A DNA stretch of 64,000 nucleotides. Origin: Eledone cirrhosa (taxonomy: Eukaryota). The stretch lies in NCBI GenBank assembly GCA_964016885.1, contig OZ024741.1:253208001-253272000 (forward strand). Direction: 5' to 3'. The notes beneath the pieces were generated by a model. It worked only from the letters and a program-made list of their open reading frames with translations. It was not told the DNA's origin and made no database searches. Positions 834 to 60,477 of this stretch are shown here, piece by piece. Every line of letters starts with the position of its first letter. The first letter of the stretch is position 1. Position numbers and translations under genes: made by a program.

Positions 834-1176
834 AGGCACATGGCTTAGTGGTTAGAGCATTGGCCTTGCAATCGAAAGGTTGTGAGTTCAATTATCAGAC
901 CAGGTGATGTGTTGTTTCCTTGAGCAAGACACTTTATTTCATATTTCTCCAGTTTACTCAGCTGTAGAAATGAGATGATAGGGACTGGGGTCCCTATCAT
1001 TCCACTGCAAAATGGTTGTGGAGGTGCCACGGCAAAAAAGCCCCCAGCACTCACTGTAAATGAAGTTGGTGTTAGGAAGGGCATCCAGCTGTAGAAATCA
1101 AACCAAAATCAGTTCCTGTCCCATCCTTGCAAGCAGGGAAAAAGCGGACGTAAAATGAAATGATGATGATGATGAT
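834..1176 (+). mobile_element. tRNA-derived CORE-type SINE with RTE-derived 3' tail
   Basis: A box TGGCTTAGTGG, B box GAGTTCAATT, CORE-like CCTTGAGCAAGACACTT...CAGTTTACTCAGCTGTAGAAATG; 3' half matches the RTE 3'UTR at ~11330-11575; (ATG)n tail. Confidence 0.85.
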
Positions 1177-7912: not shown

Positions 7913-8199
7913 TATATATGTATATTATATAAATACATATATATATTATATGATGATTTCTAATGAATGAAACAGTTCTAGTCCTGTAGAATCTCATCTA
8001 TATTAAAACTATATATATTATATGTATATGCATATACACACACACATATATATATACATATAAACATATTATGTTTACCTTTTACACACACATATATATA
8101 TATACATATAAACATATTATGTTTACCTTTTACACACACATATATATATATACATATAAACATATTATGTTTACCTTTTACACACACATATATATATAT

Positions 8200-11100
8200 G
8201 TGAAGCGCCAACCCGGAGACCCATCCCTACGAGTGTCGACAAATGCCCAAAACTCCGAGTTGGTACCATCAATGTAGGCTCAATGAAAGGAAGAGCAGGA
8301 GAAATCGTAGAAATGCTAGAGCAAAAAGAAATTGATGTATGCTGTGTGCAAGAGACTAGATGGAGAGGAGAGTCTGCCAGAGTCCTGGTAGGAAAAAGTC
8401 GGTGCTACAAATTTTTCTGGGTGGGAAATGACGATGGGATGAGTGGTGTAGGTATACTACTAGCTGACAAGTGGGTAGATAAAGTAATCTCAGTGTACAG
8501 GGTAAATGCAAGAATCATTAAACTCAGACTAGTCCTGAATAAAACAATTACCACAATAATATCAGCTTACGCACCCCAATCGGGGCTGCCAGACGAACTT
8601 AAGGATAGGTTTTACGAGTCCCTAATGCACACTACTGCTCTAACAGACGACAATGACTTCCTAATCATCGCAGGAGATTTTAACGGACAAGTAGGTAAAC
8701 ACTGCGACGGCTTCAATAGAGTACATGGAGCCCATGGGGTTGGCACAAGAAATGAAGAAGGATTAAGACTTCTAGAATTCTGCGACGCCAATGACATGTC
8801 GATATGTAACACAAACGTTAAAAAACCCGACAACCACCTGATCACCTATAGATCAGGGGAGCACTCCAGTCAGATAGATTTTATCCTCACCAGAGGACGT
8901 GATAGATGGACGGTCGTAAACACAAAAGCCTTCCCTAGTGAGGAATGTACATCCCAACATAGCTTAGTTGTCAGCGACCTCACGGTCAGAACTAGTCGAA
9001 CCTGGAAACAGAGACCAACCTGGAGAAGAAAGATCTGGAAGCTGAAAGTCCCCTCAACCAGTAACAGATTTAAAGATATTTTACTCAACGCCTACGACAG
9101 TAAAGAAGAACAGATAGAGACATTTAATGTAGAAGAGAACTGGGAGTTCCTAAAAACTAATTTACTAGAGGCGACGGATGAGGTCTGTGGCTGGAGTAAG
9201 ACCTCAAGCAGGAGGAGAGTGACTTGGTGGTGGAACAATAAGGTAGATGAAGCAGTCAAGGCCAAGAGACAGGCATGGAAAGAATGGAAGAACGGGGGGA
9301 GCAGGGTACATTACGTAGAGACCAAGAGGGAAGCTAGGCGACAAGTATACTTAGCTAGGAGGGAAGCAGAGGATAGAAAATTCAAGCATGTTTTGCAACG
9401 TGAGGACCAGAAACAGGAGGTATTCAAGATTGCGAGGCAGTGTGTCAGAGATAGTTGTGATGTCATTGGAGAGAAGTGTATCCGGAATGATAAAGGTGAG
9501 CTTGCCCTCACAAGTGCTGAGAAGAAAGATGCATGGAAGAGTCATTATGATAGATTACTAAATGAGGAGAATGCATGGGAAGAAGAAACCCTACCCCAAG
9601 TAGACCCTATAGAGGGGCCAGCAGTACAAGTCAGCAGCAGTGTAGTAAGTAAGGCAATCAAAGATATGAAGATGGGGAAGGCAACCGGTCCATCGGGTAT
9701 AGCTGCCGAGATGCTGAAGGCATCTGGGCCTGTAGGTCACACTATAACCACACGTATCGTTAACCAGGTAATACTAGAAGGTGTCATACCAAAAGATTGG
9801 TGCAGTAGCATCATTGTCAACTGCTACAAAGGTAAAGGCGATGCACTAGATAGAGGAAACTATAGAGGTATAAAGTTGATGGACCAGGTCATGAAAGTAA
9901 CAGAAAGAGTTATAGCACAGTTGATTAGGGACCAGGTGAAAATAGACGAGATGCAATTTGGGTTTGTACCAGGAAGAGGCACCACTGATGCCCTCTTCCT
10001 TGTGAGGCAATTACAGGAAAAGTACCTAGCTAAAAGTAAGCCACTCTACTTGGCATTTGTTGACCTTGAGAAAGCCTTTGACAGAGTTCCACGTGCTGTA
10101 ATCTGGTGGGCTCTTAGAAAACTAGGAGTAGATGAATGGCTTGTGAAAGCGGTACAAGCCATGTATAGGGGAGCAGTCAGCAAAGTTAGGATTAGCAATG
10201 AGTATAGCGATGAATTTAGCGTACAGGTTGGGGTCCACCAGGGCTCAGTTCTTAGCCCCCTCCTGTTCATCATAGTCCTGCAGGCAATAACGGAGGAGTT
10301 TAAGACCGGATGCCCATGGGAACTCCTGTATGCTGATGACCTCGCACTTATAGCTGAATCTATGGTAGAACTAGAGATTAAATTCCAAACTTGGAAGCAG
10401 GGACTAGAAAGAAAGGGTCTCAAAGTCAACATGACAAAGACTAAGGTCCTTGTAAGTAGACGAGAAAACAGAACCCAGATCCCCTCAGGGAAATGGCCTT
10501 GCTCAGTATGTAGGAAAGGTGTAGGTAGGAACTCCATTCTCTGCCCCAAATGCAAACAATGGGTACACAAGAGATGTAGCGGGATCTCAGGAAGCTTAAT
10601 TAAGAATGTAGGCTTCACTTGCAGCAGCTGTGCTGAGACAGCAAGCAGCGAACAGCCACAGGAAACAAGTACCACCAATCTCTGGGAGGGCTCTGTAGAC
10701 AGCTTCTGTTACCTAGGTGACCGAATTAGCAGCGGAGGTGGGTGTTCGGAAAGTACAATAACTAGGGTAAGAATAGGATGGAAGAAGTTTAGGGAACTAC
10801 TACCACTGCTAGCTGCAAAAGGCTTCTCCCTCAGAATGAAAGGCAGACTGTATGATGCGTGTATCCGAACAGCAATGTTGCATGGTAGTGAGACCTGGAC
10901 GCTGAAGGTGGAAGACTTACGTAGATTAGAGAGAAATGAAGCCTGCATGCTCCGATGGATGTGTAACAGTAACATACGTGAACAACAAAGCATAAATGAA
11001 TTGAGAGAGAGACTGAGCATAAGAGGAATCAAATGCTGTGTGCAGGAGAGGCGGATGCGCTGGTATGGACATGTAATGTGTATGAAGGATGACAGCTGCA

Positions 11101-11577
11101 TAAAAAGGTGCAGAGCACTAGATGTTGATGGAAACCGCGGAGTGGGGAGACCCAAGATGACCTGGGATGAGGTGATAAAAGCCGACCTTACCCAATTACA
11201 CCTCTCAAAGGCAATGACACATGACCATGACTTCTGGCGTCACACAGTAATACAGAGTACCCGACCTCCCATGGGTACAAGCTGAAGCATATAGAAAATA
11301 TGCCCCCACACCCCCACAGCAAGGTGGTCGTGGAGGTGCCACGGCAAAAAAGCACCCAGCCCACACTGTAAAGTGGACGTGTAGGTGCCACGAAAAAGCA
11401 CCCAGCACTCACTGTAAATGAGGTTGGTGTTAGGAAGGGCATCCAGCTGTAGAAATCAAGCCAGATCAGTTCCTGTATGAGCAAGACAAGGTCAGCCGAC
11501 CAGACACTGCCCACAACAGGACAACCCGTCTAACCCATGCTAGCGTGGAAGAACGGACGTAAAACGGTGATGATGAT
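8200..11577 (+). mobile_element. RTE-clade LINE, 5'-truncated copy A
   Basis: Collinear with copy B from ORF codon ~10 onward; 3'UTR; (TGA)n tail. Confidence 0.95.
8283..11285 (+). CDS. RTE ORF: APE endonuclease + reverse transcriptase + PHD-type zinc finger; native start lost
   Basis: CVQETRW, GDFNG, IDFIL, SQH; FVDLEKAFD, QGSVLSP, YADD; C4HC3 cluster. Confidence 0.93.
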   Translation: MKGRAGEIVEMLEQKEIDVCCVQETRWRGESARVLVGKSRCYKFFWVGNDDGMSGVGILLADKWVDKVISVYRVNARIIKLRLVLNKTITTIISAYAPQSGLPDELKDRFYESLMHTTALTDDNDFLIIAGDFNGQVGKHCDGFNRVHGAHGVGTRNEEGLRLLEFCDANDMSICNTNVKKPDNHLITYRSGEHSSQIDFILTRGRDRWTVVNTKAFPSEECTSQHSLVVSDLTVRTSRTWKQRPTWRRKIWKLKVPSTSNRFKDILLNAYDSKEEQIETFNVEENWEFLKTNLLEATDEVCGWSKTSSRRRVTWWWNNKVDEAVKAKRQAWKEWKNGGSRVHYVETKREARRQVYLARREAEDRKFKHVLQREDQKQEVFKIARQCVRDSCDVIGEKCIRNDKGELALTSAEKKDAWKSHYDRLLNEENAWEEETLPQVDPIEGPAVQVSSSVVSKAIKDMKMGKATGPSGIAAEMLKASGPVGHTITTRIVNQVILEGVIPKDWCSSIIVNCYKGKGDALDRGNYRGIKLMDQVMKVTERVIAQLIRDQVKIDEMQFGFVPGRGTTDALFLVRQLQEKYLAKSKPLYLAFVDLEKAFDRVPRAVIWWALRKLGVDEWLVKAVQAMYRGAVSKVRISNEYSDEFSVQVGVHQGSVLSPLLFIIVLQAITEEFKTGCPWELLYADDLALIAESMVELEIKFQTWKQGLERKGLKVNMTKTKVLVSRRENRTQIPSGKWPCSVCRKGVGRNSILCPKCKQWVHKRCSGISGSLIKNVGFTCSSCAETASSEQPQETSTTNLWEGSVDSFCYLGDRISSGGGCSESTITRVRIGWKKFRELLPLLAAKGFSLRMKGRLYDACIRTAMLHGSETWTLKVEDLRRLERNEACMLRWMCNSNIREQQSINELRERLSIRGIKCCVQERRMRWYGHVMCMKDDSCIKRCRALDVDGNRGVGRPKMTWDEVIKADLTQLHLSKAMTHDHDFWRHTVIQSTRPPMGTS

Positions 11578-11931
11578 ATATATATACATATAAACATATT
11601 ATGTTTACCTTTTACAGACACATCATCATCATCATCATCATCATCATCACCGTTTTACGTCCGTTCTTCCACGCTAGCATGGATTAGACGGGTTGTCCTG
11701 TTGTGGGCAGTGTCTGGTCGGCTGACCATGCCTTGCTCATACAGGAACTGATCTGGCTTGATTTCTACAGCTGGATGCCCTTCCTAACACCAACCTCATT
11801 TACAGTGAGTGCTGGGTGCTTTTTCGTGGCGCCTACACGTCCACTTTACAGTGTGGACTGGGTGCTTTTTTGCCGTGGCACCTCCACGGCCACCTTGCGG
11901 CGGAGGGGGGGGGGCATATTGTTTATCTGCT

Positions 11932-14900
11932 TCAGCATGTACCCATGGGAGGTCGGGTACCCTGTATTACTGCGTGACGCCAGAAGTCACGGTCGTGTGT
12001 CATTGACTTTGAGAGGTGTAGTTGGGTAAGGTCGGCTTTTATCACCTCATCCCAAGTCATCTTGGGTCTCCCCACTCCGCGGTTTCCATCAACTTCTAGT
12101 GCTCTGCACCTTTTTATGCAGCTGTCATCCTTCATACGCATCACATGTCCATACCAGCGTAACCGCCTCTCCTGCACGCAGCATTTGATTCCTCTTATGC
12201 TCAGTCTCTCTCTCAATTCCTTTATGCTTTGTCGTTCACGTATATTACTGTTACACATCCATCGGAGCATGCAGGCTTCGTTTCTCTCTAATCTACGTAA
12301 GTCTTCCACCTTCAGCGCCCAGGTCTCACTACCATGCAACATCGCTGTTCGGATACACGCATCATACAGTCTGCCTTTCATTCTGAGGGAGAAGCCTTTT
12401 GCAGCTAGCAGTGGTAGTAGTTCCCTAAACTTCTTCCATCCCGTTCTTACCCTAGTTATTGTACTTTCTGAGCACCCACCTCCGTTGCTAATTCGGTCAC
12501 CTAGGTAGCAGAAGCTGTCTACTGTTTCTACAGGGCCCTCCCAGAGATTGGTGGTACTTGTTTCCTGTGGCTGTTTGCTTGCTGTTTCAGCACAGCTGCT
12601 GCATGTGAATCCTACATTCTTAATTAAGCTTCCTGAGATCCCGCTACATCTCTTGTGTACCCATTGTTTGCATTTGGGGCAGAGAATGGAGTTTCTACCT
12701 ACACCTTTCCTACATACTGAGCAAGGCCATTTCCCTGAGGGGATCTGGGTTCTGTTTTCTCGTCTACTTACAAGGACCTTAGTCTTTGTCATGTTGACTT
12801 TGAGGCCCTTTCTCTCTAGTCCCTGCTTCCAGGTTTGGAATTTATTCTCTAGTTCTACCATAGATTCAGCTATGAGTGCGAGGTCATCAGCATACAGGAG
12901 TTCCCATGGGCATCCGGTCTTAAACTCCTCCGTTATTGCCTGCAGGACTATGATGAACAGGAGAGGGCTAAGAACAGAGCCCTGGTGGACCCCAACCTGT
13001 ACGCTAAATTCCTCGCTATACTCATTGCCAATCCTAACTTTGCTGACTGCTCCCCTATACATGGCTTGTACCGCTTTCACAAGCCATTCATCTACTCCTA
13101 GTTTTCTAAGAGCCCACCAGATTACTGCACGTGGAACTCTGTCAAAGGCTTTCTCAAGGTCGACAAATGCCAAGTAGAGTGGCTTACTTTTAGCTAGGTA
13201 CTTTTCCTGTAATTGCCTCACAAGGAAGAGGGCATCAGTGGTGCCTTTCCCTGGTACAAACCCAAATTGCATCTCGTCTATATTCACCCGGTCCCTAATC
13301 AGCTGTGCTATAACTCTTTCTGTTACTTTCATGACCTGGTCCATCAACTTTATACCTCTATAGTTTCCTCTATCTAGTGCATCGCCTTTACCTTTGTAGC
13401 AGTTGACAATGATGCTACTGCACCAATCTTTTGGTATGGCCCCCTCTAGTATTACCTGGTTAACGATACGTGTGGTTATAGTGTGACCTACAGACCCAGA
13501 TGCCTTCAGCATCTCGGCAGCTATACCCGATGGACCGGTTGCCTTCCCTATCTTCATATCTCTGATTGCCTTACTTACTACGCTGCCGCTGACTTGTACT
13601 GCTGGTCCCTCTATAGGGTCTACGTGGAGTAGGGTCTCTTCTTCCCATGCATTCTCCTCATTTAGTAATCTATCATAATGACTCTTCCATGCATCTTTCT
13701 TCTCAGCACTTGTGAGGGCAAGCTCACCTTTATCATTCCGGATACACTTCTCTCCAATGACATCACAACTATCTCTGACACACTGCCTCGCAATCTTGAA
13801 TACCTCCTGTTTCTGGTCCTCACGTTGTAAAACATGCTTGAATTTTCTATCCTCTGCTTCCCTCCTAGCTAAGTATACTTGTCGCCTAGCTTCCCTCTTG
13901 GTCTCTATGTAATGTACCCTGCTCCCCCCGTTCTTCCATTCTTTCCATGCCTGTCTCTTGGCCTTGACTGCTTCATCTACCTTATTGTTCCACCACCAAG
14001 TCACTCTCCTCCTGCTTGAGGTCTTACTCCAGCCACAAACCTCATCCGTCACCTCTAGTAAGTTATTTTTTAGGAACTCCCAGTTCTCTTCTACGTTAAA
14101 TGTCTCTATCTGTTCTTCTTTACTGTCGTAGGCGTTGAGTAAAATATCTTTAAATCTGTTACTGGTTGAGGGGACTTTCAGCTTCCAGATCTTTCTTCTC
14201 CAGGTTGGCCTCTGTTTCAGGGCTCGTCTAGTTCTGACCGTGAGGTCGCTGACAACTAAGCTATGTTGGGATGTACATTCCTCACTAGGGAAGGCTTTTG
14301 TGTTTACGACCGTCCATCTGTCACGTCCTCTGATGAGGATAAAATCTAACTGACTAGAGTGCTCCCCTGATCTATAGGTGATCAGGTGGTTGTCGGGTTT
14401 TTTAAAGTTTGTGTTACATATCGACATGTCATTGGCGTCGCAGAATTCTAGAAGTCTGAATCCTTCCTCATTCCTTGTGCCAACTCCATGGCCTCCATGT
14501 ACTCTATTGAAGCCGTCGCAGTGTTTACCTACGTGTCCGTTAAAATCTCCTGCAATGATTAGGAAGTCCTTGTCGTCTGTTAGAGCAGTAGTGTGTATTA
14601 GGGACTCGTAAAACCTATCCTTAAGTTCGTCTGGCAGCCCCGATTGGGGTGCGTAAGCTGATATTATTGTGGTAATTGTCTTATTCAGGACTAGTCTAAG
14701 TTTAATCATTCTTGCATTTACCCTGTACACTGAGATTACTTTATCTACCCACTTGTCAGCTAATAGTATACCTACACCACCCATCCCATCGTCATTTCCC
14801 ACCCAGAAAAATTTGTAGCACTGGCTTTTTCCTACAAGGACTCTAGCAGACCCTCCCCTCCATCTAGTCTCTTGCACACAGCATACATCAACTTCCTTTC

Positions 14901-15051
14901 GCTCTAGCATTTCTACGATTTCTCCTGCTCTTCCTTTCATTGAGCCTACATTGATGGTACCAACTCGGAGTTTTGGGCATTTGTCGACACTCGTAGGGGA
15001 GGGTCTCTGGGTTGGCGCTTCACGTGGGTGCTTGGTAGCTCGCAGATTCAT
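11932..15051 (-). CDS. Intact RTE ORF, 1039 aa: APE + RT + PHD finger
   Basis: GTINVGS, QETRW, GDFNGH, LDFIL, SQH, YADD; no stops or frameshifts. Confidence 0.96.
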   Translation of the reverse strand: MNLRATKHPREAPTQRPSPTSVDKCPKLRVGTINVGSMKGRAGEIVEMLERKEVDVCCVQETRWRGGSARVLVGKSQCYKFFWVGNDDGMGGVGILLADKWVDKVISVYRVNARMIKLRLVLNKTITTIISAYAPQSGLPDELKDRFYESLIHTTALTDDKDFLIIAGDFNGHVGKHCDGFNRVHGGHGVGTRNEEGFRLLEFCDANDMSICNTNFKKPDNHLITYRSGEHSSQLDFILIRGRDRWTVVNTKAFPSEECTSQHSLVVSDLTVRTRRALKQRPTWRRKIWKLKVPSTSNRFKDILLNAYDSKEEQIETFNVEENWEFLKNNLLEVTDEVCGWSKTSSRRRVTWWWNNKVDEAVKAKRQAWKEWKNGGSRVHYIETKREARRQVYLARREAEDRKFKHVLQREDQKQEVFKIARQCVRDSCDVIGEKCIRNDKGELALTSAEKKDAWKSHYDRLLNEENAWEEETLLHVDPIEGPAVQVSGSVVSKAIRDMKIGKATGPSGIAAEMLKASGSVGHTITTRIVNQVILEGAIPKDWCSSIIVNCYKGKGDALDRGNYRGIKLMDQVMKVTERVIAQLIRDRVNIDEMQFGFVPGKGTTDALFLVRQLQEKYLAKSKPLYLAFVDLEKAFDRVPRAVIWWALRKLGVDEWLVKAVQAMYRGAVSKVRIGNEYSEEFSVQVGVHQGSVLSPLLFIIVLQAITEEFKTGCPWELLYADDLALIAESMVELENKFQTWKQGLERKGLKVNMTKTKVLVSRRENRTQIPSGKWPCSVCRKGVGRNSILCPKCKQWVHKRCSGISGSLIKNVGFTCSSCAETASKQPQETSTTNLWEGPVETVDSFCYLGDRISNGGGCSESTITRVRTGWKKFRELLPLLAAKGFSLRMKGRLYDACIRTAMLHGSETWALKVEDLRRLERNEACMLRWMCNSNIRERQSIKELRERLSIRGIKCCVQERRLRWYGHVMRMKDDSCIKRCRALEVDGNRGVGRPKMTWDEVIKADLTQLHLSKSMTHDRDFWRHAVIQGTRPPMGTC

Positions 15052-15296
15052 ATTTCATCTATTGATTCAGAGTTGCTCGTGTATTCCCAGCTCATCCATC
15101 CATAACGGTGGGAAAATTGAGGGCTAGAAGAACAGTGGTGGTGGGGTAATGGCAGGGTGTGTTGGGATGCGCCAGAGGCGGAGAGAGTTAGTTAGGCAGG
15201 TAGTAGCAGCAGCAGTGGAAATGGCATGCTAGGTTTGATTGGTCGAATAGACTATGGTGGTGTGTGGTGGTGGTGGGGGGGGGGGGAAATTGTGAG

Positions 15297-17270
15297 GTAG
15301 GAACTGAGGGTCGCATGGTAAATATCCAAGTTAATACTACATCAGTAAAATTAACAATAATAACGTCATGAAAAAAACTACTAAGAGAAACCCTAGAAAA
15401 TTTATCGCTAATACAGCAGGGAAAATTTAACGCTAATACAGCAGGGAACATCATAATATTAACGACAATATGTAGGCTAAAATACCTTCGTAGATTAGAT
15501 GGATGGCTGGAATAATTGGAGTCAGCTCTAGTGATACATTTTAGCAGAGAAGAATGGGAAAGTATCTATCTCTTCAATATTTTCAGATTGAATGAATTAG
15601 GTTAAAGACAGGGTAGTAAGCCTTAAAGAAGTGCATAGAGAGGGGGGGGTAGGAACTGAGGGTCGCATGGTAAATAACAGAGAGATACAATAGGATTAGA
15701 ATACCGCATGGTAAATATCCAAGTTAATAAGTTAATACTACATCAGTAAAATTAACAATAATAACGTCATGAAAAAAACTACTAAGAGAAACCCTAGAAA
15801 ATTTATCGCTAATACAGCAGGGAAAATTTAACGCTAATACAGCAGGGAACATCATAATATTAACGACAATATGTAGGCTAAAATACCTTCGTAGATTAGA
15901 TGGATGGCTGGAATAATTGGAGTCAGCTCTAGTGATACATTTTAGCAGAGAAGAATGGGAAAGTATCTTATCTCTTCAATATTTTCAGATTGAATGAATT
16001 AGGTTAAAGACAGGGTAGTAAGCCTTAAAGAAGTGCATAGAGAGGGGGGGTAGGAACTGAGGGTCGCATGGTAAATAACTGAGAGAGATACAATAGGATT
16101 AGAATACCGCATGGTAAATATCCAAGTTAATAAGTTAATACTACATCAGTAAAATTAACAATAATAACGTCATGAAAAAAACTACTAAGAGAAACCCTAG
16201 AAAATTTATCGCTAATACAGCAGGGAAAATTTAACGCTAATACAGCAGGGAACATCATAATATTAACGACAATATGTAGGCTAAAATACCTTCGTAGATT
16301 AGATGGATGGCTGGAATAATTGGAGTCAGCTCTAGTGATACATTTTAGCAGAGAAGAATGGGAAAGTATCTTATCTCTTCAATATTTTCAGATTGAATGA
16401 ATTAGGTTAAAGACAGGGTAGTAAGCCTTAAAGAAGTGCATAGAGAGGGGGGGGGTAGGAACTGAGGGTCGCATGGTAAATAACTGAGAGAGATACAATA
16501 GGATTAGAATACCGCATGGTAAATATCCAAGTTAATAAGTTAATACTACATCAGTAAAATTAACAATAATAACGTCATGAAAAAAACTACTAAGAGAAAC
16601 CCTAGAAAATTTATCGCTAATACAGCAGGGAAAATTTAACGCTAATACAGCAGGGAACATCATAATATTAACGACAATATGTAGGCTAAAATACCTTCGT
16701 AGATTAGATGGATGGCTGGAATAATTGGAGTCAGCTCTAGTGATACATTTTAGCAGAGAAGAATGGGAAAGTATCTTATCTCTTCAATATTTTCAGATTG
16801 AATGAATTAGGTTAAAGACAGGGTAGTAAGCCTTAAAGAAGTGCATAGAGAGGGGGGGGGGTAGGAACCGAGGGTCGCATGGTAAATAACTGAGAGAGAT
16901 ACAATAGGATTAGAATACCGCATGGTAAATATCCAAGTTAATAAGTTAATACTACATCAGTAAAATTAACAATAATAACGTCATGAAAAAAACTACTAAG
17001 AGAAACCCTAGAAAATTTATCGCTAATACAGCAGGGAAAATTTAACGCTAATACAGCAGGGAACATCATAATATTAACGACAATATGTAGGCTAAAATAC
17101 CTTCGTAGATTAGATGGATGGCTGGAATAATTGGAGTCAGCTCTAGTGATACATTTTAGCAGAGAAGAATGGGAAAGTATCTTATCTCTTCAATATTTTC
17201 AGATTGAATGAATTAGGTTAAAGACAGGGTAGTAAGCCTTAAAGAAGTGCATAGAGAGGGGGGTAGGAAC
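15297..17270 (-). repeat. Five tandem monomers (352, 401, 405, 406, 402 bp) forming the LINE 5' end; putative promoter array
   Basis: GTAGGAAC at 15297, 15649, 16050, 16455, 16861 and 17263; units near identical. Confidence 0.92.
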
Positions 17271-17573
17271 ACATATATATATATATACATATAAACATAT
17301 TATGTTTACCTTTTACACACACATATATATATATAAATATATATATACATATAAACATATTATGTTTACCTTTTACACACACATATATATATATACATAT
17401 AAACATATTATGTTTACCTTTTACACACACATATATATATATACATATAAACATATTATGTTTACCTTTTACACACACATATATATATATATATATATAC
17501 ACATATAAACATGTTTACCTTTTACACACACACATATATATATATACATATAAACATATTATATTTACCTTTT

Positions 17574-17619
<46 letters not shown>

Positions 17620-17786
17620 ACATATGTTTACCTTTTACACACACATATATATATATGCATATAAACATATTGTTTACCTTTTACACACACATATATATAT
17701 ATATATATATACATATAAACATATTATGTTTACCTTTTACACACACACATATATATATACATATAAACATATTATGTTTACCTTTT

Positions 17787-17826
<40 letters not shown>

Positions 17827-18838
17827 ACATATGTTTACCTTTTACACACACACATATATATATATACATATAAACATATTATGTTTACCTTTTACACACA
17901 CATATATATATATATATACATATAAACATATTATGTTTACCTTTTACACACACATATATATATATACATATAAACATATGTTTACCTTTTACACACACAT
18001 ATATATATACATATAAACATATTATGTTTACCTTTTACACACACATATATATATATATACATATAAACATATTATATTTACCCTTTACACACACACATAT
18101 ATATATATATACATATAAACATATTACGTATGCATGTATGTATGTAAAGAGACAAGTCTGGCCAGAATTAGCCATGCCATACCTTGCTCCAAGAGGACTG
18201 TATATTTGGCTGGGGTTTTACAGCTATGGCTGCAAGCATGGCTGAGTGGTTCAGAAGTTTGCTTTGCAATTAAAAAGTCCCAGATTTGGTCCCTCTGAGT
18301 GGCATCTTAGGCAAGTATTTTTTACTACAGCCCCAGGTTGACCCAAGCATTGAGAGGGAAATTAGATTGGCAGAAACTGTCTGGAAGACCATTAAATGGA
18401 TTGTACCGGTAATTCAATGGTGTAACCTTGTTGCACAGGTATTAATTACAACTTTATATGTGTTCAACTTTACCTTTCATCCTTCCGGGGTAGATAAAAT
18501 AAAGTACCAGTTATGTACTGGTGTGATATAATCAACTTTCGTCTTCGCCAAAATTACTGCCCTTGTGCTAATGTTAGAAAGAATTATTTTATTTGTCTTT
18601 CTTAACAGAATTCTATATATTTTAATATTTCTAAAGCTCATAGTTCCACTTTTCTTTTCTTACTTGTTCCATTCTTCTCTTTGTTTCAATGTTGCTATGT
18701 GTTCTTTCATTATTTTACTGATTCTAGTCATTAGACTGCAGCCATGTGTGTTTGTATCAATAATTCTTACCACTCATCTACAAAAATCTCATTCTGCTCC
18801 ATATATTATAAATGTTCTGTTTCCATTACAGTTTCATT

Positions 18839-19402: not shown

Positions 19403-19548
19403 ATAACAAAATTTAATATAGAAATGTCTTCTACAGGACTAGAACTGTTTCATTCAAAGAAAATAATCAGAGCTTTCCTGATAATTTCCTTCAAATAAAA
19501 CAGTTCTAGACCTTTAGAAGCCATTCCTATATTAAACTTTGTTGTATA
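19403..19548. repeat. Fold-back of ~70-bp arms carrying degenerate hammerhead motifs (Penelope pLTR-like)
   Basis: Arms are reverse complements; consensus with 7951-8010 gives CTGATGA..GAAAcag..ctgTA. Confidence 0.65.
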
Positions 19549-19859
19549 CATTCTTCTAATGTATTGAGTACCATTTACTATGGTTACTCCCTTTTGAACA
19601 TGGGACTCACACACACACGCACACACATATATGTATATATGTAATAGGTAAACAGATATAACAACACAATCAGTACAGGAAGGAATATATTAGTTTAACC
19701 CTTGAAATAACAGGAAGAGGGTCTTAGTGTTTCGGAGGCTAGTCCTTCATCAAAAGAAAGAATGAAAAATTAGAAAGATTAAAGGGATGAGCAAGGCGGA
19801 GTTGGAAAAAAAAATTTTAGAGAAAAATAACAGGTCCATTAATATTGCCAGCTCTTGAT

Positions 19860-22047
19860 ATCATCATCATCATCATCGTTTAACGTCCATATTCCACACT
19901 TGCATGGGTTTGGACGGGAGTTTTCCCACTTGAGGCAAGAGTGGTTGTCTTGCTCGCATAGGACTGTCTGGCGGGTTTTCTACAGCTGGATGCCCTTCCT
20001 AACACCAACCACATTTACAGTGTGGAACTGGGAGGTTTTTACCGTGTTGCCTACACGGCCACATTACAGCGTGGACTGTGTGTTTTTTTTTGTCGTGACA
20101 CCTACACAATCTCATTTGTTTCGGGCTGGATGTTGTGGTACCAACATAACTTTACATTGAAAGGGGTGGTGTGGATGGGGTGGGATGGGGTGTATTTTGT
20201 TAGAGGTGCCTACTGACTGTAGTAGGTTTCACTTTGTACTTAGGTAAGGCGGGTCTTCTCTATTACTGTGTAGCGCCAAAGGTCTCAGTCCAGTGACATT
20301 GTCTTGGAGAGGTGTAAGTGTGTGAGGTTGGAATTTATCAAGTCGTCCCAGGTTTTTCTGGGTCTGCCTACTCCGTGGCTACCGTCTATTTTTATTGCCC
20401 TGCACTTTTTTATACAGCTGTCGTCTTTCATGCGCATCACGTAACCATACCAACGTAGTCTTCTCTCGAGTAAACAACATCTGATCCCTCTTATTTCTAA
20501 TTTTTCCCTTAGTTCGTTTATGCTTTGCCGTTCACGTATATTACTATTACACATCCAGCGGAGCATGCAAGCTTCGTTCCTCTCCAGTCTGCGTATATCC
20601 TCGGCACACAATGCCCAGGTCTCGTTGTTCATATGCAGGCATCATACAGCCTGCCTTTCATTTTTAGGGAGAACCCTTTAGCGGCTAATAGTGGTATAAG
20701 CTCGCTGAACTTTTTCCATCCAGTTCTGACTCTAACTACTGTACTTTCAGAGCACCCTCCCCCATTGCTGATTTTGTCACCCAGGTAACGGAAGCTGTCC
20801 ACTATTTCTATAGAACGATTTGTGCAATGGAATGAGCTAGTATTCTGTGGGCACTTGCTGCTATTTATTGCACCAGATCACCAGCCACATCTAAAATCTA
20901 TGTTCTTAGTTAGCTTACCTGTGATCCCACTACATCTTTTATGCACCCATACTTTGCATTTGGGACATAAAATGGAGTTTCTACTTACTCCTTTCCCACA
21001 CACTGAGCATGGCCATTTCCCAGATGGGACAGGCACCCTATTTTCCTTCCTACAAACTAGAACTTTAGTCTTAGACAGGTTAATTTTAAGGCCTTTTGAT
21101 TCTAGGCCATGCTTCCATGTTTGGAATTTCTTCTCTAGTTTGGCCTTTGATTCAGTTATGAATGTTAGATCATCTGCGTATAGGAGTTCCCATGGGCAGC
21201 CGGTCTTGAACTCCACTGTTATAGCCTGAAGGGCAATAATAAATAGTAGGGGGCTAAGAATGGAGCCCTGATGAACACCAACTTTTACGCTAAACTCTTC
21301 ACTATATTCGTTGTTAATTCTAACCTTGCTGACTGTTTCTTTATACATGGCTTGTATAGCTCTCACAAGCCATTCATCAACACCTAGTTTTCTAAGAGCC
21401 CCCCAGATAATGGAATGGGGGACTCTGTCGAAGGCTTTCTCCAAGTCAACAAAAGCTAAGTATAGGGGTTTACTTTTAGCTAGGTACTTCTCCTGTAGTT
21501 GTCGTACAATGAAAAGAGCATCTGTGGTACTTTTACCTGACACAAACCCGAACTGCATTTCATCTAGATCAATTCTCTCTCTGATTAGTTGCGCTATTAC
21601 TTTTTCTGTGACCTTCATGACCTGGTCGATTAATTTAACGCCTCTATAGTTACTTCTATCTAGGGCATCTCCTTTACCCTTGTAGCAGTTAATGATGATG
21701 CTGCTACGCCAGTCCTTCGGAACAACCCCATTCTGTATGACTTGGTTTACTATCCGGGTGACCATGGTGTGTCCCACCGTTCCAGAAGCTTTCAGCATTT
21801 CAGCAACTATTTCCGAAGGCCCAGCCGCCTTACCCGTCTTCATATCTTTGATTGCCTTACTTATTATACTACCTTCGACTAACACTGCTGGTCCCTCTAT
21901 TGAGTCGATGTGGGGGAGACTGTCTTTCTCCCATTTATTCTCCTCATTTAGTAGCCTTTCGTAGTGACACTTCCAAGCTACCTTCTTATCAGCGTCAGTG
22001 ATGGCAAGTACACCATTATCATTAAGGACACACTTCTCCCCGACAAT
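19860..22047 (-). mobile_element. RTE LINE second subfamily, 5'-truncated and frameshifted
   Basis: ORF pieces 20878-22047 (YADD, PHD) and 20285-20632; distinct 3'UTR; (CAT)n tail. Confidence 0.92.
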
Positions 22048-22101
22048 ATATATATAAAGCGGACGTAAAATGATGATGATGATGATGATATATATATATA
22101 T

Positions 22102-22450
22102 GATAAATGTAATCTGAGTTTTTCGAATATTAATAACATTCGATTCGTTTGCAATTTTGCAAACAAGCCTCAATTTCATAGCCATGTCAGTAGAATGAGC
22201 CCCTCATTCCTGCTCTTGTGTTGGCATGCGAACAGAACTGCAGACACTAATGTTTCTGGGTATCACTCTTCATCAATACAGTTCACTGTTCACCTGCCAA
22301 ACTGTCAGAGTTAGTGAAGTGTAAGAATGAAGTGTTCTCCTGACATGGCTATAAAATTGAGGCTTGTTTGCAAAATTGCAAACGAATCGAATGTTATTAT
22401 TAATATTCAAAAAACTCAGATTACATTTATTGCCTTCAGCCATGTAGAGC
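22102..22450. mobile_element. Fold-back element, ~88-bp inverted arms around a hammerhead motif; partial second copy 23914-24140
   Basis: ATAAATGTAATCTGAG...GCCATGTCAG versus CTGACATGGC...CTCAGATTACATTTAT. Confidence 0.8.
22235..22284 (-). ncRNA. Type-I hammerhead motif with a core C-to-U change
   Basis: gaactgta TTGATGA agagtgataccca GAAA cattagtg TC tgcagttc. Confidence 0.6.
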
Positions 22451-22477
22451 AAAATTTTCTTTCTATATATATATAAG

Positions 22478-22945
22478 TTACGGAGTAGGCAGACCCAGAA
22501 CAACCTGGGACGATTTGATAAATTCTGACCTTACACACTTACACCTCTTTAAGACAATGTCACTGGACTGAGATTTTTGGCGCTACGCAGTAATACAGAA
22601 GATCCGCCTTGCCTAACTACAAAGCGAAACCTACAGTCAGTAGACACCTCTTAATCAAATATACACCCCCATCCCACTACCTCAACTCCCCCCCCCCATC
22701 AACACCACCCCTTTCTCTGTAAAGTTATGTTGGTACCACAACATCCAGTCCTAAATAAATGAAGTCGTGTAGGTGTCACGACAAAAAAACACACATCCAA
22801 GCTGCAATGTGGCCGTGTAGGTAACACGGTAAAAACCTCCCAGTCCACACTGTAAACGTGGTTGGTGTTTGGAAGGGCATCCAGCCGTAGAAAACCTGGA
22901 AGATAGACATTAAACGATGATAATGATAATGATGATGTTGATGAT
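22478..22945 (+). mobile_element. RTE subfamily 2, 3' fragment
   Basis: Matches the reverse complement of ~19860-20375 with an internal deletion. Confidence 0.85.
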
Positions 22946-22954
22946 ATATATATA

Positions 22955-23277
22955 AATAAAGTGTCTTGCTCAAGGAAACAACACATCACCTCAGACCGGG
23001 TGATGTGTTGTTTCCTTGAGCAAGACACTTTATTTCACATTGCTCCAGTTTACTCAGCTGTAGAAATGAGATGATAGGAACTAGGGTCCCTATCATTCCA
23101 CTGCAAAGTGCTCGTGGAGGTGCCATGGCAAAAAAAGCACCCAGCACTCATTATAAATGAGGTTGGTGTTAGGAAGGGCATCCAGCTGTAGAAATCAAGC
23201 CAGAGTCAGTTCCCGTCCCACCCTTGCAAGCAGAGAAAAAGCGGACGTAAAATGAAATGATGATGATGAATGATGAT
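22955..23277 (+). mobile_element. CORE-type SINE with 5' fold-back inversion
   Basis: Same family as 834-1176; head replaced by an inverted copy of the CORE segment. Confidence 0.85.
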
Positions 23278-26595: not shown

Positions 26596-26627
<32 letters not shown>

Positions 26628-26630
<3 letters not shown>

Positions 26631-26966
26631 TTATTCAAAATATTAACAAATGAAGGATATTCACATAATCAAAATATATGCTTTATTATATATATTTCAA
26701 AGGTACTGTGTTGTTTTTTCAGTACGTCTTCATCAGATAAAATATATGATTTGATATATGACATACCGCTACGGTCTTGATTATTCAATTCCAGTATTGG
26801 CAGTATTGAATAATCAAAACTGTAGCGGTATGTCATATATCAAATCATATATTTTATCTGATGAAGACGTACTGAAAAAACAACACAGTACCTTTGAAAT
26901 ATATATAATAAAGCATATATTTTGATTATGTGAATATCCTTCATTTGTTAATATTTTGAATAATAT
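26628..26966. mobile_element. Near-perfect fold-back (~160-bp arms) of a hammerhead-bearing pLTR-like sequence
   Basis: Arms separated by a ~15-nt spacer; hammerhead motif in each arm. Confidence 0.85.
26852..26913 (+). ncRNA. Type-I hammerhead ribozyme; mirror copy on minus at ~26681-26742
   Basis: ttttat CTGATGA agacgtactg-aaaaaacaaca-cagtaccttt GAAA tatata TA ataaag. Confidence 0.7.
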
Positions 26967-28555
26967 TAAAAACTCCAGGAAAACCTCTGTTGAGTGCTTC
27001 TAATCTATTGTAAAATTGTATTCATTGAGTAATCAACGAACCATATTAATCTTTGGTTATATAATATATATATATGATGGGATGAGTTTTAATATATTAT
27101 TAAATTCAAAACTACTATGAAGACATAATATGGTGAACCACAAGGACATGCATTTCATTAAGCGATCGCAACTTTTTAAACTTGCACTATATAAATATAG
27201 GTTTATGAAGCTAGTCAAAGAGAATCAGTACAGCTTCAGTCATCTCTTACTTACTCAATGATATAATCAGGTTTGTATTATTAGAAATGCAAACCCATTA
27301 TTCAGAGTGTATACATACGTTAATTAGTAAGATAAACAGTGTGAAGGGGGTGAGGTAGGTACTTCAAAAGCATAGTAACTAAAGTAAGAATTGTGTGAAA
27401 AAATTTCAGGGAGCTATTTCTTCTGCTGGTAACAAAGGGTTTCTTTCTGAGAATGAATGACAGATTGTATATTGTTTGTGTACAAAGTACAATGCTGTAT
27501 AGTAAGAAAAGGGTGCCCTTGAAAGCAGAGGATATGTAAAAACTAGAAAGAAATTGGAGTGTGTAATATTAGTGTGCATGAATGAAGGAGCACAAATAAG
27601 CTGAGAGAAAAGCTGAATGTATGAGGAATTCGATGTTATGTACAAGAGAGAAAACTATTCAGGTAGGAGCATATAACACAGATGGCAGATGACAGTTATA
27701 TAATTAAGCCATCCAGCGCGAAGGGTCTTTTGTGTCTTAAGCCCCTCCAATAATTTGTTTCAATATATCATACTTGTGCTTTGGTATTTACTACACTGAT
27801 TTTCTATTGACTCTAAATATATTAGTATGATGATCATCATCAATTAACATCTATCTTTCACGCTAGCATGGGTTAGATGGGTTTGTCCCATTTGACGCAA
27901 ATTTGGTTTGGTAACTGTGTCTCGCTCATATAGGACTGTTTCTGGCTTGCTTTCTACAGCTGGATGCCCTTCCTAGTGCCAGCATCATTTACAGTGTGTG
28001 TTGGGTGCTTTTTGCCATGTCTCCTACACGACCACTCTACAGTGTGGACTGGGTGCTTTTTGTCATGACATCTACATGGCCACTTTACTGTGTGGGCTGG
28101 ATGTTTTGTGGTACCAACATAACTTTACAGAGTAAGGATGGTATGGGTGGAAGTGGGAGGGAAGTGTAGGGTGTATATTAGATTAAGAGGTGCCTATGTT
28201 TTTAATTTCTTTCTTAGTCTTGTATTGGTGATAAAAATGTATGAGCTAATAATAATTATACACATGTAGAATATATATACTTAAGCCCCACCCAATTCCA
28301 AAACTGTAACAGAAGCTCTAATAATGAAATGCTTAGGGCTCAAAGTAGATCAGACTTGTGTATGCCAGAAACATAGGAAGACATGGGACAAAATGAAGGC
28401 TGGTATGAAAATGCTGAACCTCATAAAGGAGATATCAAAGGTCTGTGACAGATGATGACATATGGAGCTGCAGAAGATCTGGCCACCCATGCAAGAATGA
28501 CAATTAAAACAATGACATGGTAGAATTAATAAAAGTGAGGTATGACTAGATTTAA

Positions 28556-30309: not shown

Positions 30310-30657
30310 ATCATCATCATCATCATCATCATTTCATTTTACGTCTGCTTTTTCCCTGCAAGGGTGAGACGGGAACTGACTCTGGCTTGATTTCTACAGC
30401 TGGATGCCCTTCCTAACACCAACCTCATTTACAGTGAGTGCTGGGTGCTTTTATGTTGTGGCACCTCCACGACCACTTTGCAGTGGAATGATATGGACCC
30501 CAGTCCCTATCATCTCATTTTTACAGCTGAGTAAACTGGAGCAATGTGAAATAAAGTGTCTTGCTCAAGGAAACAACACATCACCCGGTCTGAGAATTGA
30601 ACTCACAGCCTTTCGATTGCAAGGCCAATGCTCTAACCACTAAGCCATGTGCCTCCA
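30310..30657 (-). mobile_element. Full-length CORE-type SINE with RTE tail
   Basis: Reverse complement of the 834-1176 family. Confidence 0.88.
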
Positions 30658-33395: not shown

Positions 33396-34865
33396 CTAGC
33401 TGGGGTATCTGGCTTTACCCAGGAGAACAGTTAAGAGAAGATGGATAAAAGAGAAAATGACTGTATTGCATGTGTTTTTTGGTTTACTGTATGAGGTGAG
33501 ACTGTAATGTGTGAGTGAAAGAGAGAGAAACATAAAAAAAAAACAATCATAAAACTTCCTTATTAGGCTGGCAGAGTAAACTGCCGATTTAATGGTAGTA
33601 TTGGCCTTGGATTTTAAATGTTGTGAAATAACCATAGTCAGTATAATCTTTTTCAGCTCCAAGGGATGTCATCTGAAACGCAGCAATATACCACATAACA
33701 TTGCTTCTGAAGTGTTTAGCTTCGTTAGTAGGGTCTGTAAGCAGTATTCTCATCTCATATCCTGCGAAATGTCACAATGTTGACTTGTCCTTCTATTCCC
33801 TCTATGAACAAGTACATTAAATTTCACGCCCGTATTTGGGAATTTATTTTGTAGCCTTTTAGAGAATTTTGTGCCAAACAAAAGATAATGGTCAAGAAAA
33901 ATGGGATGGTGAGAATTGTTCTGGTTCAGTGAATATGGCTGGTGAGCTGAGTGTCAGAATTCAGACTTTCTATTGAAATAAAGAAAGTAGAGATAGGTAT
34001 GTTTATTTGTGTGCTTGTGGGTGTGGGTGTGTGTGTGTGTGTGTAGGAAGATGATTCTATTACAAAATATATATATTCTCTCCATCTTAACATGCTAACC
34101 ATACTCCCACACACACATACACACACACACAACTCCCTCCCCCATTTCTACTAATAGAATCATCTTCCTATACACACACAAACACACAAATAAACATACC
34201 GATCTCTACTTTCTTTATTTCAATAGAAAGTCTGAATTCTGACACCCAGCACACCAGTCATAATCACTGAACCAGAACAATTCTCCCCATCCCATTTTTC
34301 TTGACCATTATCTTTTGTTTGGCACAAAATTCTCTAAATGGCTATAAAAAATTTCCAAAATACGGGCATGAAATTTAATGTACTTGTTCACGTGACAGTC
34401 ATAATTTCCTTTATAACCAATCAAATTACATTTATAAAAAAACCCTTCGTGAGCCACTTTTTTTTAACTAAAAAGAAATTCAAACACACACTGGCGGGAA
34501 AGCTGATGTGCTTATTCACGTGACTGCATCAACCAACCAAACTTCACTCATATATGAAAAAACAATCTGAGCCCCCCCCCCCCCTTGTTTGAAGAACTTT
34601 GTAATGCGAACTGGCGTGAAATTTATTATACTTATTCACCAACCAACCAAATTACTTCTCTAAAAACGTAGCATTTTGAGCCACTTTTCTCCATATAAAA
34701 CAGAAGTAACATTCAAAGACCAACCAGATGTGAGAAAAACCACAGACTCTCCATCTCAACTCTACTTTTGAAAAGCAGAAGAACTGCAAAACCGGTAAAG
34801 GAACCAAATAAATATATAATTAAAAAAAAAAAGATTCCAGTTGCATTTTCGATTTCATCGTTTTT

Positions 34866-36632: not shown

Positions 36633-39272
36633 ATCACAGTAACCCACAGTAACTACAATAACACATAATAACCCATAACAGCCTACATTAACCCACCATA
36701 ACCCACAGCAACCCACAGTAACCCACAGCAACCTTCAGTAACCCACAGCTACACACAGTAGACCACAGTAACGAACAGTAACCCGCAGTTACCCACAGTA
36801 ACCCACAGCAACCCACAGTAATCCATAGTAACACACAGTAACCCACATTAACCCACAGCAAGACACAGTAACCCACAGTAACCCACAGCAACACACAGTA
36901 GCCCACTGTAGACCACAGTAACCCACAGTAACCCACAGTAACCCACAGTAACCCACAGTAACCTCCAGCATCCCACAGTAACCTACAGTAATCCACAGCA
37001 ATCTACAGTAACCCACAGCAACACACAGTAACCCACAGCAGCCCACAGCAACCCACAATAACCCACAGTAACCCACAGTAACCCACAGCAGCCCACAGCA
37101 ACCCACAATAACCCACAGTAACCCACAGCAGCCCACAGTAACCCACAGCAGCCCACAGTAACCCATAGTAACCCACAGCAGCCCACAGTAACCCACAGTA
37201 ACCCATAGTGATCCACAGTAACCCATAGTAACCCATAGTAACCCACATCAAAACACAGTAACCCACAGCAGCCCACAGTAACCCTCAGCAACCCACAGTA
37301 ACCCACAGTAACCCACAGCAACCCACAGTAACCCACAGAAACACACAGTAACCCACAGCAACACACAGTAACCCACAGCAGCTCACAGTAACCATCAGCA
37401 ACCCACAGTAACCATCAACAACCCACAGTAACCGACAGTAACCCACAGTAACCACCAGCAGCCCACAGCAGCCCACAGTAATCCACAGTAACACACAGTA
37501 ACCCACAGCAACCCACAGTAACCCACAGTAGCCGACAGTAGCCCACAGTAACCCACAGTATCCCGCAGCAACCCACAGCAACCCACAATAACCCACAGTA
37601 ACCATAAGCAACCCACAATAACCCACAGTTGCCCACATAACCCACAGCAGCCCACAGTAACAATCAGCAACCCACAGTAACCATCAACAACCCATAGTAA
37701 CTCCCAGTAACCCAAAGTAACCCACAGTAACCCAGGGCAATCCACAGTAACCCACAGTAACCCACAGTAACCCACAGAAAAACACAGTAACCCACAGTAA
37801 CCCACAGCAACACACAGTAACCCAAATCAGCCCACAGTAACCATCAGCAACCCACAGTAACCATCAACAACCCACAGTAACCCACAGTAGCCCACAGTAA
37901 CCCACAGCAGCCCACAGTAACCCTCAGTAACCCACAGTAACTATCAACAACCCACAGTAACCATCAACAACCCACAGTAACCCACAGTAACCCACAATAA
38001 CCCACAGTAACCCACAGTAACCCACAGCAGCCCACAGTAACCCACAGTAACCCACAGTAACCCACAGTAACCCACAGCAGCCCACAGTAACCCACAGCAA
38101 CCCACAGTAACCCACAGTAACCCATAGTGATCCACAGTAACCCATAGTAACCCATAGTAACCCACAGTAACACATAGTAACCCATAGTAACCCACATCAA
38201 CCCACAATAACCCACAGCAACACACATTAACCCACAGCAGCCCACAGTAACCATCAGCAATCCACAGTAACCCACAGCAACCCACAGTAACCCACAGCAA
38301 CACACAGTAACCCACAGCAACACACAGTAGCCCATAGCAGCCCACAGTAACCATCAGCAAACCCACAGTAACCATCAACAACCCACAGTAACCCACAGCA
38401 ATCCACAGCAACACGCAGTAACCCACAGCAACACGCAGTAACCCACAGCAACCCACAGTAACCATCAACAACCCACACTAACCCACAGCAATCCACAGTA
38501 ACCCACAGCAATCCACAGTAACCCACAGCAGCCCACAGTAACCCACAGTAACCCATAGCAATCCACAGTAACCCACAGTAACCCACAGTAACCCACAGCA
38601 GCCCACAGTAACCCACAGCAGCCCACAGTAACCCACAGCAGCCCACAGTAACCCACAGCAACTATCAACAACCCACAGCAGCTCACAGTAACCCACAGTA
38701 ACCCACAATAACCCACAGTAACCCACAGTAACCCACAGCAGCCCACAGTAACCCACAGCAACTATCAACAACCCACAGCAGCCCACAGTAACCCACAGTA
38801 ACCCACAATAACCCACAGTAACCCACAGTAACCCACAGCAGCCCACAGTAACCCACAGCAGCCCACAGTAACCCACAGCAGCCCACAGCAACCCATAGTA
38901 ACCCACAGCAGCCCACAGTAACCCACAGCAGCCCACAGTAACCCACAGCAACTATCAACAACCCACAGCAGCTCATAGTAACCCACAGCAGCCCACAGTA
39001 ACCCACAATAACCCACAGTAACCCACAGTAACCCACAGCAGTCCACAGTAACCCACAGTAACCCACAGCAGCCCACAGTAACCCACAGCCACCCACAACA
39101 ACCCACAGCAGCCCACAGTAACCCACAGCAGCCCACAGCAGCCCACAGTAACCCACAGCAACCCACAGTAACCCACAGCAGCCCACAGCAGCCCACAGTA
39201 ACCCACAGCAGCCCACAGTAACCCACAGCAGCCCACAGTAACCCACAGTAACCCATAGCAACCCACAACAGT
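36633..39272. repeat. 2.6-kb 10-bp satellite (ACCCACAGTA / GCCCACAGCA variants)
   Basis: Continuous decamer periodicity, ~260 units. Confidence 0.97.
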
Positions 39273-42991: not shown

Positions 42992-42992
<1 letters not shown>

Positions 42993-43025
<33 letters not shown>

Positions 43026-43138
43026 CCATTTTACGTCCGTTCTTCCACGCTAGCATGGGTTAGACAGGTTGTCCTGTTGTGGGCAGTGTCTGGTCGGTTG
43101 ACCTTGTCTTGCTCATACTGGAACCGATTCTGGTTTGA
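42993..43138 (-). mobile_element. RTE family A/B 3' end fragment
   Basis: Matches 11621-11760. Confidence 0.85.
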
Positions 43139-58476: not shown

Positions 58477-58553
<77 letters not shown>

Positions 58554-60413: not shown

Positions 60414-60477
60414 AACACCACTGACGATGTTGCAGATGTGCAACGAAAGATTTATGTAAACTATATATATATGTGTT
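60414..60477 (+). ncRNA. Hammerhead motif in pLTR; mirror on minus at 58738-58801
   Basis: CTGACGA t-gttgca-gatg-tgcaac GAAA gatttatgtaaac TA; stem I weak. Confidence 0.6.

Follow-up and report, generated by a model that had tools for sequence, protein, structure and literature searches.

A tail-to-tail pair of RTE-type LINEs within a minisatellite of Eledone cirrhosa, probably formed by two separate insertions

Two nearly identical long interspersed nuclear elements (LINEs) of RTE type, here called A and B, meet tail-to-tail in the genome of Eledone cirrhosa (assembly GCA_964016885.1, contig OZ024741.1), which raises the question of whether their inverted repeat is a selected arrangement, such as a silencer of its own family, or an accident of insertion. 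We analyzed the 64,000 nucleotides from 253,208,001 to 253,272,000 of the forward strand (the window; positions count from its first letter). We propose, with a probability of roughly 0.7, that the two copies of one RTE-type LINE family derive from separate target-primed insertions into neighbouring minisatellite units, and that the inverted repeat is an accidental by-product rather than a selected silencer. Pairs of inverted transposons are a familiar arrangement, and the present one is probably functionless; what appears unusual belongs to the element itself, namely an internal PHD finger, a leader of tandem monomers and an RNA box that seems to have moved. The parts of the locus, with repeats delimited by Tandem Repeats Finder (TRF) or by unit register, are:

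8035..8199, plus strand: left part of the 48-bp minisatellite, about 3.4 units (TRF, unit register); its last 10 nt, (AT)5 with a T4 run 10 nt upstream, are the likely 5' copy of the target duplication of A
8200..11577, plus strand: copy A, a 5'-truncated RTE-type LINE with a stop-free frame for endonuclease (APE), reverse transcriptase (RT) and PHD finger to 11285, a 290-nt 3' untranslated region (UTR) and a (GAT)3 tail
11578..11621, no strand: spacer (unit register)
11622..11931, minus strand: 3' UTR and (GAT)9 tail of copy B, with a 46-bp duplication, an RNA box near 11773-11784 and a terminal region
11932..15051, minus strand: open reading frame (ORF) of copy B, 1039 aa from the ATG, with APE endonuclease (aa 32-266), RT (Pfam, aa 557-761) and thumb
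12592..12723, minus strand: PHD finger of copy B, C4HC3, aa 777-820 (PF00628, 27.2 bits against a cut-off of 24)
15052..15304, minus strand: leader ("tether"), 253 nt, unique, C-rich, 51% GC, with a CCAAT box at about 15244
15305..17270, minus strand: five tandem monomers of 402, 406, 405, 401 and 352 nt, 35% GC (TRF)
17269..18126, plus strand: right part of the 48-bp minisatellite, about 16.7 units (TRF), oriented as the left part and the spacer

A first-pass annotation had described two near-identical RTE-type LINEs lying tail-to-tail as an inverted repeat of about 3.4 kb, and the alignment confirms it: arm A (8200-11577, plus) and arm B (15023-11640, minus) match at 3259 of 3375 columns, with 116 substitutions (96.6% identity), and the APE-RT frame is free of stops in both. 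The scattered substitutions and 9-bp indel of that description are present; a second gap had been overlooked, and the differences are patterned by selection rather than random. Both gaps are in frame, one of 9 nt found only in B (~12523-12531) and one of 3 nt found only in A (10648-10650). The tail of A, (GAT)3, runs to 11577 and that of B, (GAT)9, begins at 11622, leaving a spacer of 44 nt by alignment, or the 43 nt first given if one ambiguous base is assigned to the tail of B. The spacer had been taken for exactly one minisatellite unit; it does amount to about one period of the 48-bp repeat, in which the end of a unit is followed by the opening 6 nt of its neighbour. It carries a private C-to-G change and can form a weak 7-bp hairpin of its own (-3.6 kcal/mol as DNA). 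With the tail of B 18 nt longer than that of A, the unpaired centre consists of 44 nt plus an 18-nt bulge, about 60 nt in all. In Rfam, the junction and minisatellite give sub-threshold matches to miRNA-type hairpins (42 rows, none at the gathering score).

The minisatellite keeps the same register and orientation on the left, in the centre (the spacer) and on the right, with units of variable length (45-63 nt). The pair had been thought to end at 15025; the arms align as far as 15023, and B continues 2.25 kb upstream of its ORF as leader and monomers, likely to 17270, beyond which the minisatellite resumes in register with the unit cut by the tail of B, leaving a duplication of 2-6 nt.

Did the two copies arrive separately? 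Between A and B, dN/dS is 0.27 (1026 codons; 51.5 synonymous and 52.5 non-synonymous differences), and neutral simulation gives 28.8 +/- 4.4 synonymous differences, the observed 51.5 being reached in 0 of 2000 runs. Because of this synonymous excess and the low dN/dS, much of the A/B divergence appears to have arisen under selection, in separate source lineages. Where the 50 amino-acid differences fall in columns at least 90% conserved among 98 homologues, A departs from the consensus at 7 and B at 0 (p = 0.016). Expressed as decay, A has lost 7 of ~575 sites (~1.2%) and B stays below 0.5% (95% upper bound), which suggests that A is the older copy (~1.2% decay per site) and B a young one (below ~0.5%). 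Copy B is thus likely young and intact, and copy A, with its seven lost residues and the 9-nt gap read as a deletion, older, decayed and 5'-truncated: A starts inside the ORF and has neither leader nor ATG nor the first ~9 codons, the ATG of B being at 15051.

Long inverted repeats in microsatellite-rich DNA are difficult to assemble, and the repeat could in principle be an artefact of assembly or fold-back, or a single element duplicated locally in inverted form. Either origin is extremely improbable: assembly errors or a local copy are incompatible with a dN/dS of 0.27 and with all seven conserved-site losses falling in one arm, and for these reasons we regard A and B as two insertions and not as a fold-back. 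A fold-back would moreover have inverted the far-side minisatellite, yet its orientation is kept, and the far flanks differ by 2.25 kb. The earlier case for independent insertions is therefore stronger than when it was made, as judged by dN/dS, the losses, the continuous orientation of the minisatellite and the target duplications. Gene conversion spreading from the centre was considered and rejected; mismatches per 200-bp bin are uneven (p = 0.009), with a maximum of 17 at the proximal 3' UTR and 3 in the last bin, and form no clear gradient.

How would two insertions come to lie one unit apart? RTE elements make target duplications of 7-15 bp with a "Tn-TA" signature, in which the duplication begins with A ten nucleotides after a T run (PMC6007223, PMC13295347). 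The duplication of A is 8-10 bp long, begins with A and lies 10 nt downstream of a T4 run, and the same signature is possible in most units of the array. We propose that the endonuclease would nick at T|A in AT-rich tracts and that the (GAU)n tail of the RNA would anneal to the freed AT 3' end; both junctions permit 2-3 nt of such pairing. AT tracts are identical on both strands, which would allow insertion in either orientation, and a 21-unit array would offer about 21 candidate target sites per kb. Copy A would have inserted first, with its 10-bp duplication matching the RTE signature; B, a full-length copy of a sister sub-lineage whose leader of tandem monomers is likely its promoter, would have followed on the opposite strand, one unit away.

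Related ends are common in the window. Thirteen family 3' ends, 6 plus and 7 minus, were recognized from 12 of the 23 runs of (GAT)3 or longer together with one interrupted tail; the 11 excluded runs comprise 8 without an element-like end and 3 rows from an element that the window edge truncates. A second pair in opposite orientation shares one AT tract at 22.04-22.09 kb, and one further end belongs to the A/B subfamily itself:

42992-43139, minus strand: 124-bp 3' fragment of the A/B subfamily, 94% identical, with a (GAT)11 tail and (AT)n on either side

Abundant, symmetric AT targets appear enough to explain the pair, and attraction of one copy by the other is unnecessary.

The copies might also have landed several units apart, or on different chromosomes, and been joined later by slippage or unequal crossover in the array. 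Unit lengths do vary from 45 to 63 nt, near-identical units would leave junctions that look the same, and hairpin loops favour the loss of repeated units. Such a history requires an extra step of which there is no direct sign, the private change in the spacer being neutral either way, and we consider it very improbable.

Several observations weigh against two direct insertions of a young B beside an older A. At a 50% conservation threshold the protein losses are 10 in A and 4 in B (p = 0.18), and derived DNA changes, polarized with a 74%-identical third copy, number 25 in A and 18 in B with 16 of 59 unpolarized (p = 0.36). The duplication at B is only 2-6 nt, with the nearest T run ~20 nt upstream; it falls outside Tn-TA and fits only the T|A part. 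The preference for (AT)n is weak: ATATAT follows 5 of the 13 tails (p = 4e-5 against all positions), and dedicated (AT)n targeting is no longer significant once AT microhomology is conditioned on (p = 0.13). Finally, the monomers are assigned to B from one copy; they lack a CpG island, their GC content of 35% is host-like, and they may stem from amplification in place or from host DNA that was captured.

Does the pair act as a silencer? On the sense strand of B, the 3' UTR and the spacer contain neither AATAAA nor ATTAAA; the earliest ATTAAA lies at 9128 and the earliest AATAAA at 7253. Because no canonical poly(A) hexamer precedes 9128, read-through from B would pair over at least 2.4 kb, and a 3.4-kb hairpin RNA is feasible as judged from the sequence. 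The potential duplex holds 1774 perfect 21-mers over the full arms, in perfect runs of up to 191 nt, and in RNA G-U pairing would accommodate 45 of the 116 mismatches. Were B transcribed beyond its tail, the product would fold back as a 3.4-kb duplex; editing and retention by ADAR would then be likely, and would chiefly damp B itself. A hairpin from the plus strand would need a host transcript, since A has neither promoter nor start codon. The AT microsatellites and (CAT)n-tailed repeats of the window look octopus-like. Animals in general hyper-edit inverted repeats that neighbour each other, octopus to an extreme degree, and duplexes of this kind are unwound by ADAR (PMC5625713).

Trans-silencing had been suggested in the first-pass annotation. 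For a functional silencer of this kind, transcripts from the promoter of B would run through antisense A, and Dicer or the piRNA pathway would process the hairpin, repressing the whole family. It could draw on several of these features: the leader is present in B and absent from A, no hexamer intervenes before 9128, the perfect 21-mers and G-U pairs are numerous, and octopus hyper-editing of neighbouring inverted repeats is exceptional (PMC5625713). We nevertheless find it unlikely. B looks very young, which leaves little time for selection, unwinding by ADAR is expected to compete with Dicer (PMC5625713), and many further opposite-strand ends of the family lie nearby; with 13 related 3' ends in both orientations, the pair is not the sole possible source of double-stranded RNA in the window. 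As an accidental by-product, the apparently intact young copy beside a full-ORF antisense copy is still a natural experiment, setting ADAR against small-RNA pathways on a multi-kilobase transposon duplex.

The locus had also been expected to be cruciform-prone as DNA, which is not borne out: a loop of 44-62 nt, together with 3.4% arm mismatch, compares with a 9-bp threshold in yeast. There, breaks at Alu inverted repeats fall by 80% at a 9-bp spacer and no fork arrest is seen at 9-12 bp (PMC8053094), and strong depletion of inverted Alu pairs is confined to spacers of up to 24 bp, where the inverted-to-direct ratio (I:D) is ~0.07 (PMC3215922). Transient hairpins on single-stranded DNA are possible at this locus.

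What kind of element is it? Its architecture, set beside the known features of the clade, makes it a putative RTE LINE: one ORF runs from APE to RT, with no ORF1 or C-terminal CCHC motif, a (GAT)n microsatellite tail and a 3' end common to short interspersed nuclear elements (SINEs). Labelled RTE references are absent from its database matches. In copy B, Pfam PF03372/PF14529 and PF00078 fall within the single 1039-aa frame, whose AF2 model has a mean pLDDT of 87.8 and finds L1 ORF2p and R2 as top Foldseek matches. No CCHC pattern occurs past aa 860 of this frame and no separate ORF1 was found, the frames in leader and monomers being interrupted by stops. Copy B, with its 5' end amplified, is likely a full-length element of 5.65 kb.

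The case for amplification is internal to B. Its five 5' monomers differ by 0-1 substitutions in any pairwise comparison, the same 8-nt motif opens each monomer and the leader, and the array begins precisely at that motif; from this pattern the monomers are likely the amplified 5' end of the element. Relatives with long flanks were sought by a scan of contigs, which gave 12 loci; at the six inspected (L001-L006), on short contigs and ~45% identical, TRF finds no 5' monomers. These six loci are RTE-type LINEs of the lineage that have microsatellite tails and flanks of animal character; their contigs are catalogued in bacterial genome bins, and the DNA is probably that of a host or environmental eukaryote.

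An HDV-like 5' ribozyme is reported for some RTE families and is not a feature of all RTEs. Here monomers, leader and 3' UTR have no Rfam ribozyme match at E up to 5, and an HDV-like descriptor and a hammerhead core each give 0 matches (the former on 11601-17330, both strands). With these zero counts, descent of the monomers from a retrozyme-like element, also considered, is unsupported.

Two family-wide features had escaped the first-pass annotation, the PHD finger and the RNA box of the 3' UTR. The PHD finger is inserted between the YADD and CYLG motifs of the RT, in A as in B and in the divergent copy at 20.9 kb; PF00628 scores above its cut-off in A and B, and in the 74% copy, whose frame is truncated, it falls slightly short. 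It is a property of a lineage: among 120 homologues, ~50% identical to B, 113 have a C4HC3 pattern downstream of YADD, the median YADD-CYLG distance is 126 aa, and the eight zinc ligands do not vary among the 99 aligned proteins. The profile alignment to L1 breaks at the point of insertion. This PHD domain already has automatic annotation in many database proteins. In the literature searched, which was partial and did not cover Repbase, we found no description of a PHD inside an RTE RT, and a paper on sea-snake RTEs does not mention one. A separate Atlas cluster of APE-RT proteins carries zf-PARP in 78%, a hint that related LINEs have acquired other zinc fingers.

The best-matching solved PHD structures are those of Pygopus, whose pocket for methylated K4 is formed by Y341, V350, A356, W366 and D352 (PMC2726290). 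The LINE PHD keeps an aromatic residue at 775 in 94/99 proteins, V784 in 89/99, S/A788 in 98/99 and W797 in 98/99; the position equivalent to Asp352 is absent. Nor does the surface resemble the acidic one expected of a Pygopus-type H3K4me reader, aa 773-822 having a positive net charge in 99/99 with a median of +7. The PHD lies in the primer-grip region of the RT, and its predicted partner at the insertion step is target chromatin or nucleic acid. Its role may be histone reading or nucleic-acid binding near the primer grip, and we lean slightly towards nucleic acid.

These properties bear on whether the pair reflects attraction, the first copy having made its site a target (for example through a chromatin mark read by the PHD), or concerted insertion, two ribonucleoproteins having primed at once from opposite nicks. 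Two long, near-intact copies 44 nt apart are expected to be rare, only 182 recent near-full-length RTE insertions are reported in O. vulgaris (PMC13282606), and the PHD retains four of the five pocket positions. Attraction through H3K4me is at odds with the basic charge and the missing Asp352 equivalent, a single event is at odds with the decay asymmetry of 7 to 0, and we judge both forms quite improbable. The same low odds attach to a broader scenario: a widespread, undescribed RTE lineage would use a chromatin-reading PHD in its RT to steer copies to marked chromatin, even beside its own earlier copies, and would here have set a young, monomer-promoted master against an old copy; the resulting 3.4-kb hairpin locus would trigger itself and silence both the family and the SINEs with its 3' box. 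We continue with two unassisted insertions as the preferred account.

The remaining peculiarity is the RNA box of the 3' UTR, a 12-nt motif in a short stem. The window contains 10 instances, of which A, B and four divergent relatives have theirs in the 3' UTR, one lies in a window-edge fragment and three SINEs hold the others; these SINEs have ~120 nt and the tail in common with the LINE 3' end. The SINEs are ~92% alike:

834-1176, plus strand: SINE with tRNA-like head
30310-30654, minus strand: SINE with tRNA-like head
22975-23277, plus strand: SINE

The tRNA-like heads were judged by eye, ARAGORN finding no tRNA in them. The LINE is likely the mobilizer of these box-sharing SINEs. On contig L002 the box lies ~200-230 nt upstream of the endonuclease in both related PHD-type elements, and in the complete element the tail directly follows the ORF; the box is absent from the leader of B and from the 610-nt upstream region of L001. 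Bipartite SINEs made of RTE 5' and 3' UTRs are known (PMC5786205). Based on the two elements of one contig, we infer that the lineage may have adopted the 3' half of a bipartite SINE as its own 3' UTR and acquired a new 5' leader. Covariation in the box is weak (a 6-bp stem, a single pair with two-sided change), and literature searches for the motif return only unrelated papers, with no match in the supplement of PMC5786205.

No host genes were recognized in the window by long ORFs, those elsewhere being transposon-like; small exons were not searched. The other repeats are:

19860-22047, minus strand: third copy of the PHD-bearing lineage, 5'-truncated, ~74% identical to A and B, frameshifted near 20630
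22047-22945: repeat cluster, with a 15-nt LINE 3' end and its (GAT)6 tail facing the third copy, head-to-head, inside a single AT tract
22110-22430: palindromic 320-bp element inside this cluster
54155-55564 and 58995-60149, plus strand: long frames with a Penelope-type C-terminal look and GIY-YIG nuclease, no Pfam match
63268-63939, minus strand: Tc1/mariner-type transposase fragment (PF01498, E 0.0017, below cut-off)
36635-39267: 2.6-kb array of 10-bp units with strong strand skew
19409-19551, 26626-26968 and 33805-34390: short inverted or palindromic repeats, 81-95% alike, probably like miniature inverted-repeat transposable elements

The cluster at 22047-22945 also contains a plus-strand LINE 3' fragment, 86% identical to the end of the third copy, which makes another inverted pair ~2 kb apart. 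The two long frames are presumably Penelope-type; the second falls in Atlas clusters HTH_animal and GIY-YIG and is flanked by a 291-bp inverted repeat of 100% identity (58550-58840 / 60375-60665).

Mu killer of maize is a rearranged DNA-transposon derivative with demonstrated trans-silencing. The Eledone locus resembles it as inverted transposon sequence that could give hairpin RNA, and differs in consisting of two separate LINE insertions. Close inverted Alu pairs are nearer in kind, being separate insertions of one retroelement family with the potential for double-stranded RNA (PMC3215922, PMC8053094), although the LINE arms are ten times longer and the 44-nt spacer lies beyond the depletion zone of up to 24 bp (PMC3215922).

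As an element, the LINE shares with RTE-clade relatives such as Bov-B and plant RTE-1 the single APE-RT ORF, the microsatellite tail, the Tn-TA duplication (in A) and the SINE-shared 3' end (PMC6007223, PMC13295347); it differs in the PHD inside its RT, in tandem 5' monomers and in having the box in a 290-nt 3' UTR, where relatives have it in the 5' UTR. RTE-2_OV of Octopus vulgaris likewise has a single ORF and a microsatellite tail, and its UTR of ~600 nt compares with 605-660 nt for the leader of B plus one monomer; its protein, however, is 1109 aa long with a C2H2 finger and its microsatellite starts at the ORF end, whereas ours has 1039 aa, an internal PHD and a structured 3' UTR (PMC9115989). 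Motifs of our element had no match in the parts searched of the supplements of PMC9115989 and PMC13282606, whose remaining files may hold a consensus of the family. On 5' monomers in RTE elements, the material found treats L1. In rodent L1, tandem monomers are joined to the ORF via a ~250-nt tether, as in B (PMC5381506); those of B are 352-406 nt, AT-rich, without a CpG island, near-identical, known from one copy and only a putative promoter. If other copies of the family have the same leader, its monomer-plus-tether form would be a convergence with rodent L1.

The PHD has its closest parallel in CR1/L2 LINEs, where Pygopus-like PHDs occur in ORF1 or at the ORF N-terminus and have been proposed to act in chromatin targeting (PMC4120745). 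Both systems place a Pygopus-like PHD within a LINE protein; here it lies inside the RT, a region that the same paper terms highly constrained (PMC4120745). With a PHD fixed in its RT, a large LINE lineage departs from the constraint that usually holds for ORF2 architecture, and this would offer a direct test of chromatin reading in site choice, the question raised for the PHDs of CR1/L2 (PMC4120745).

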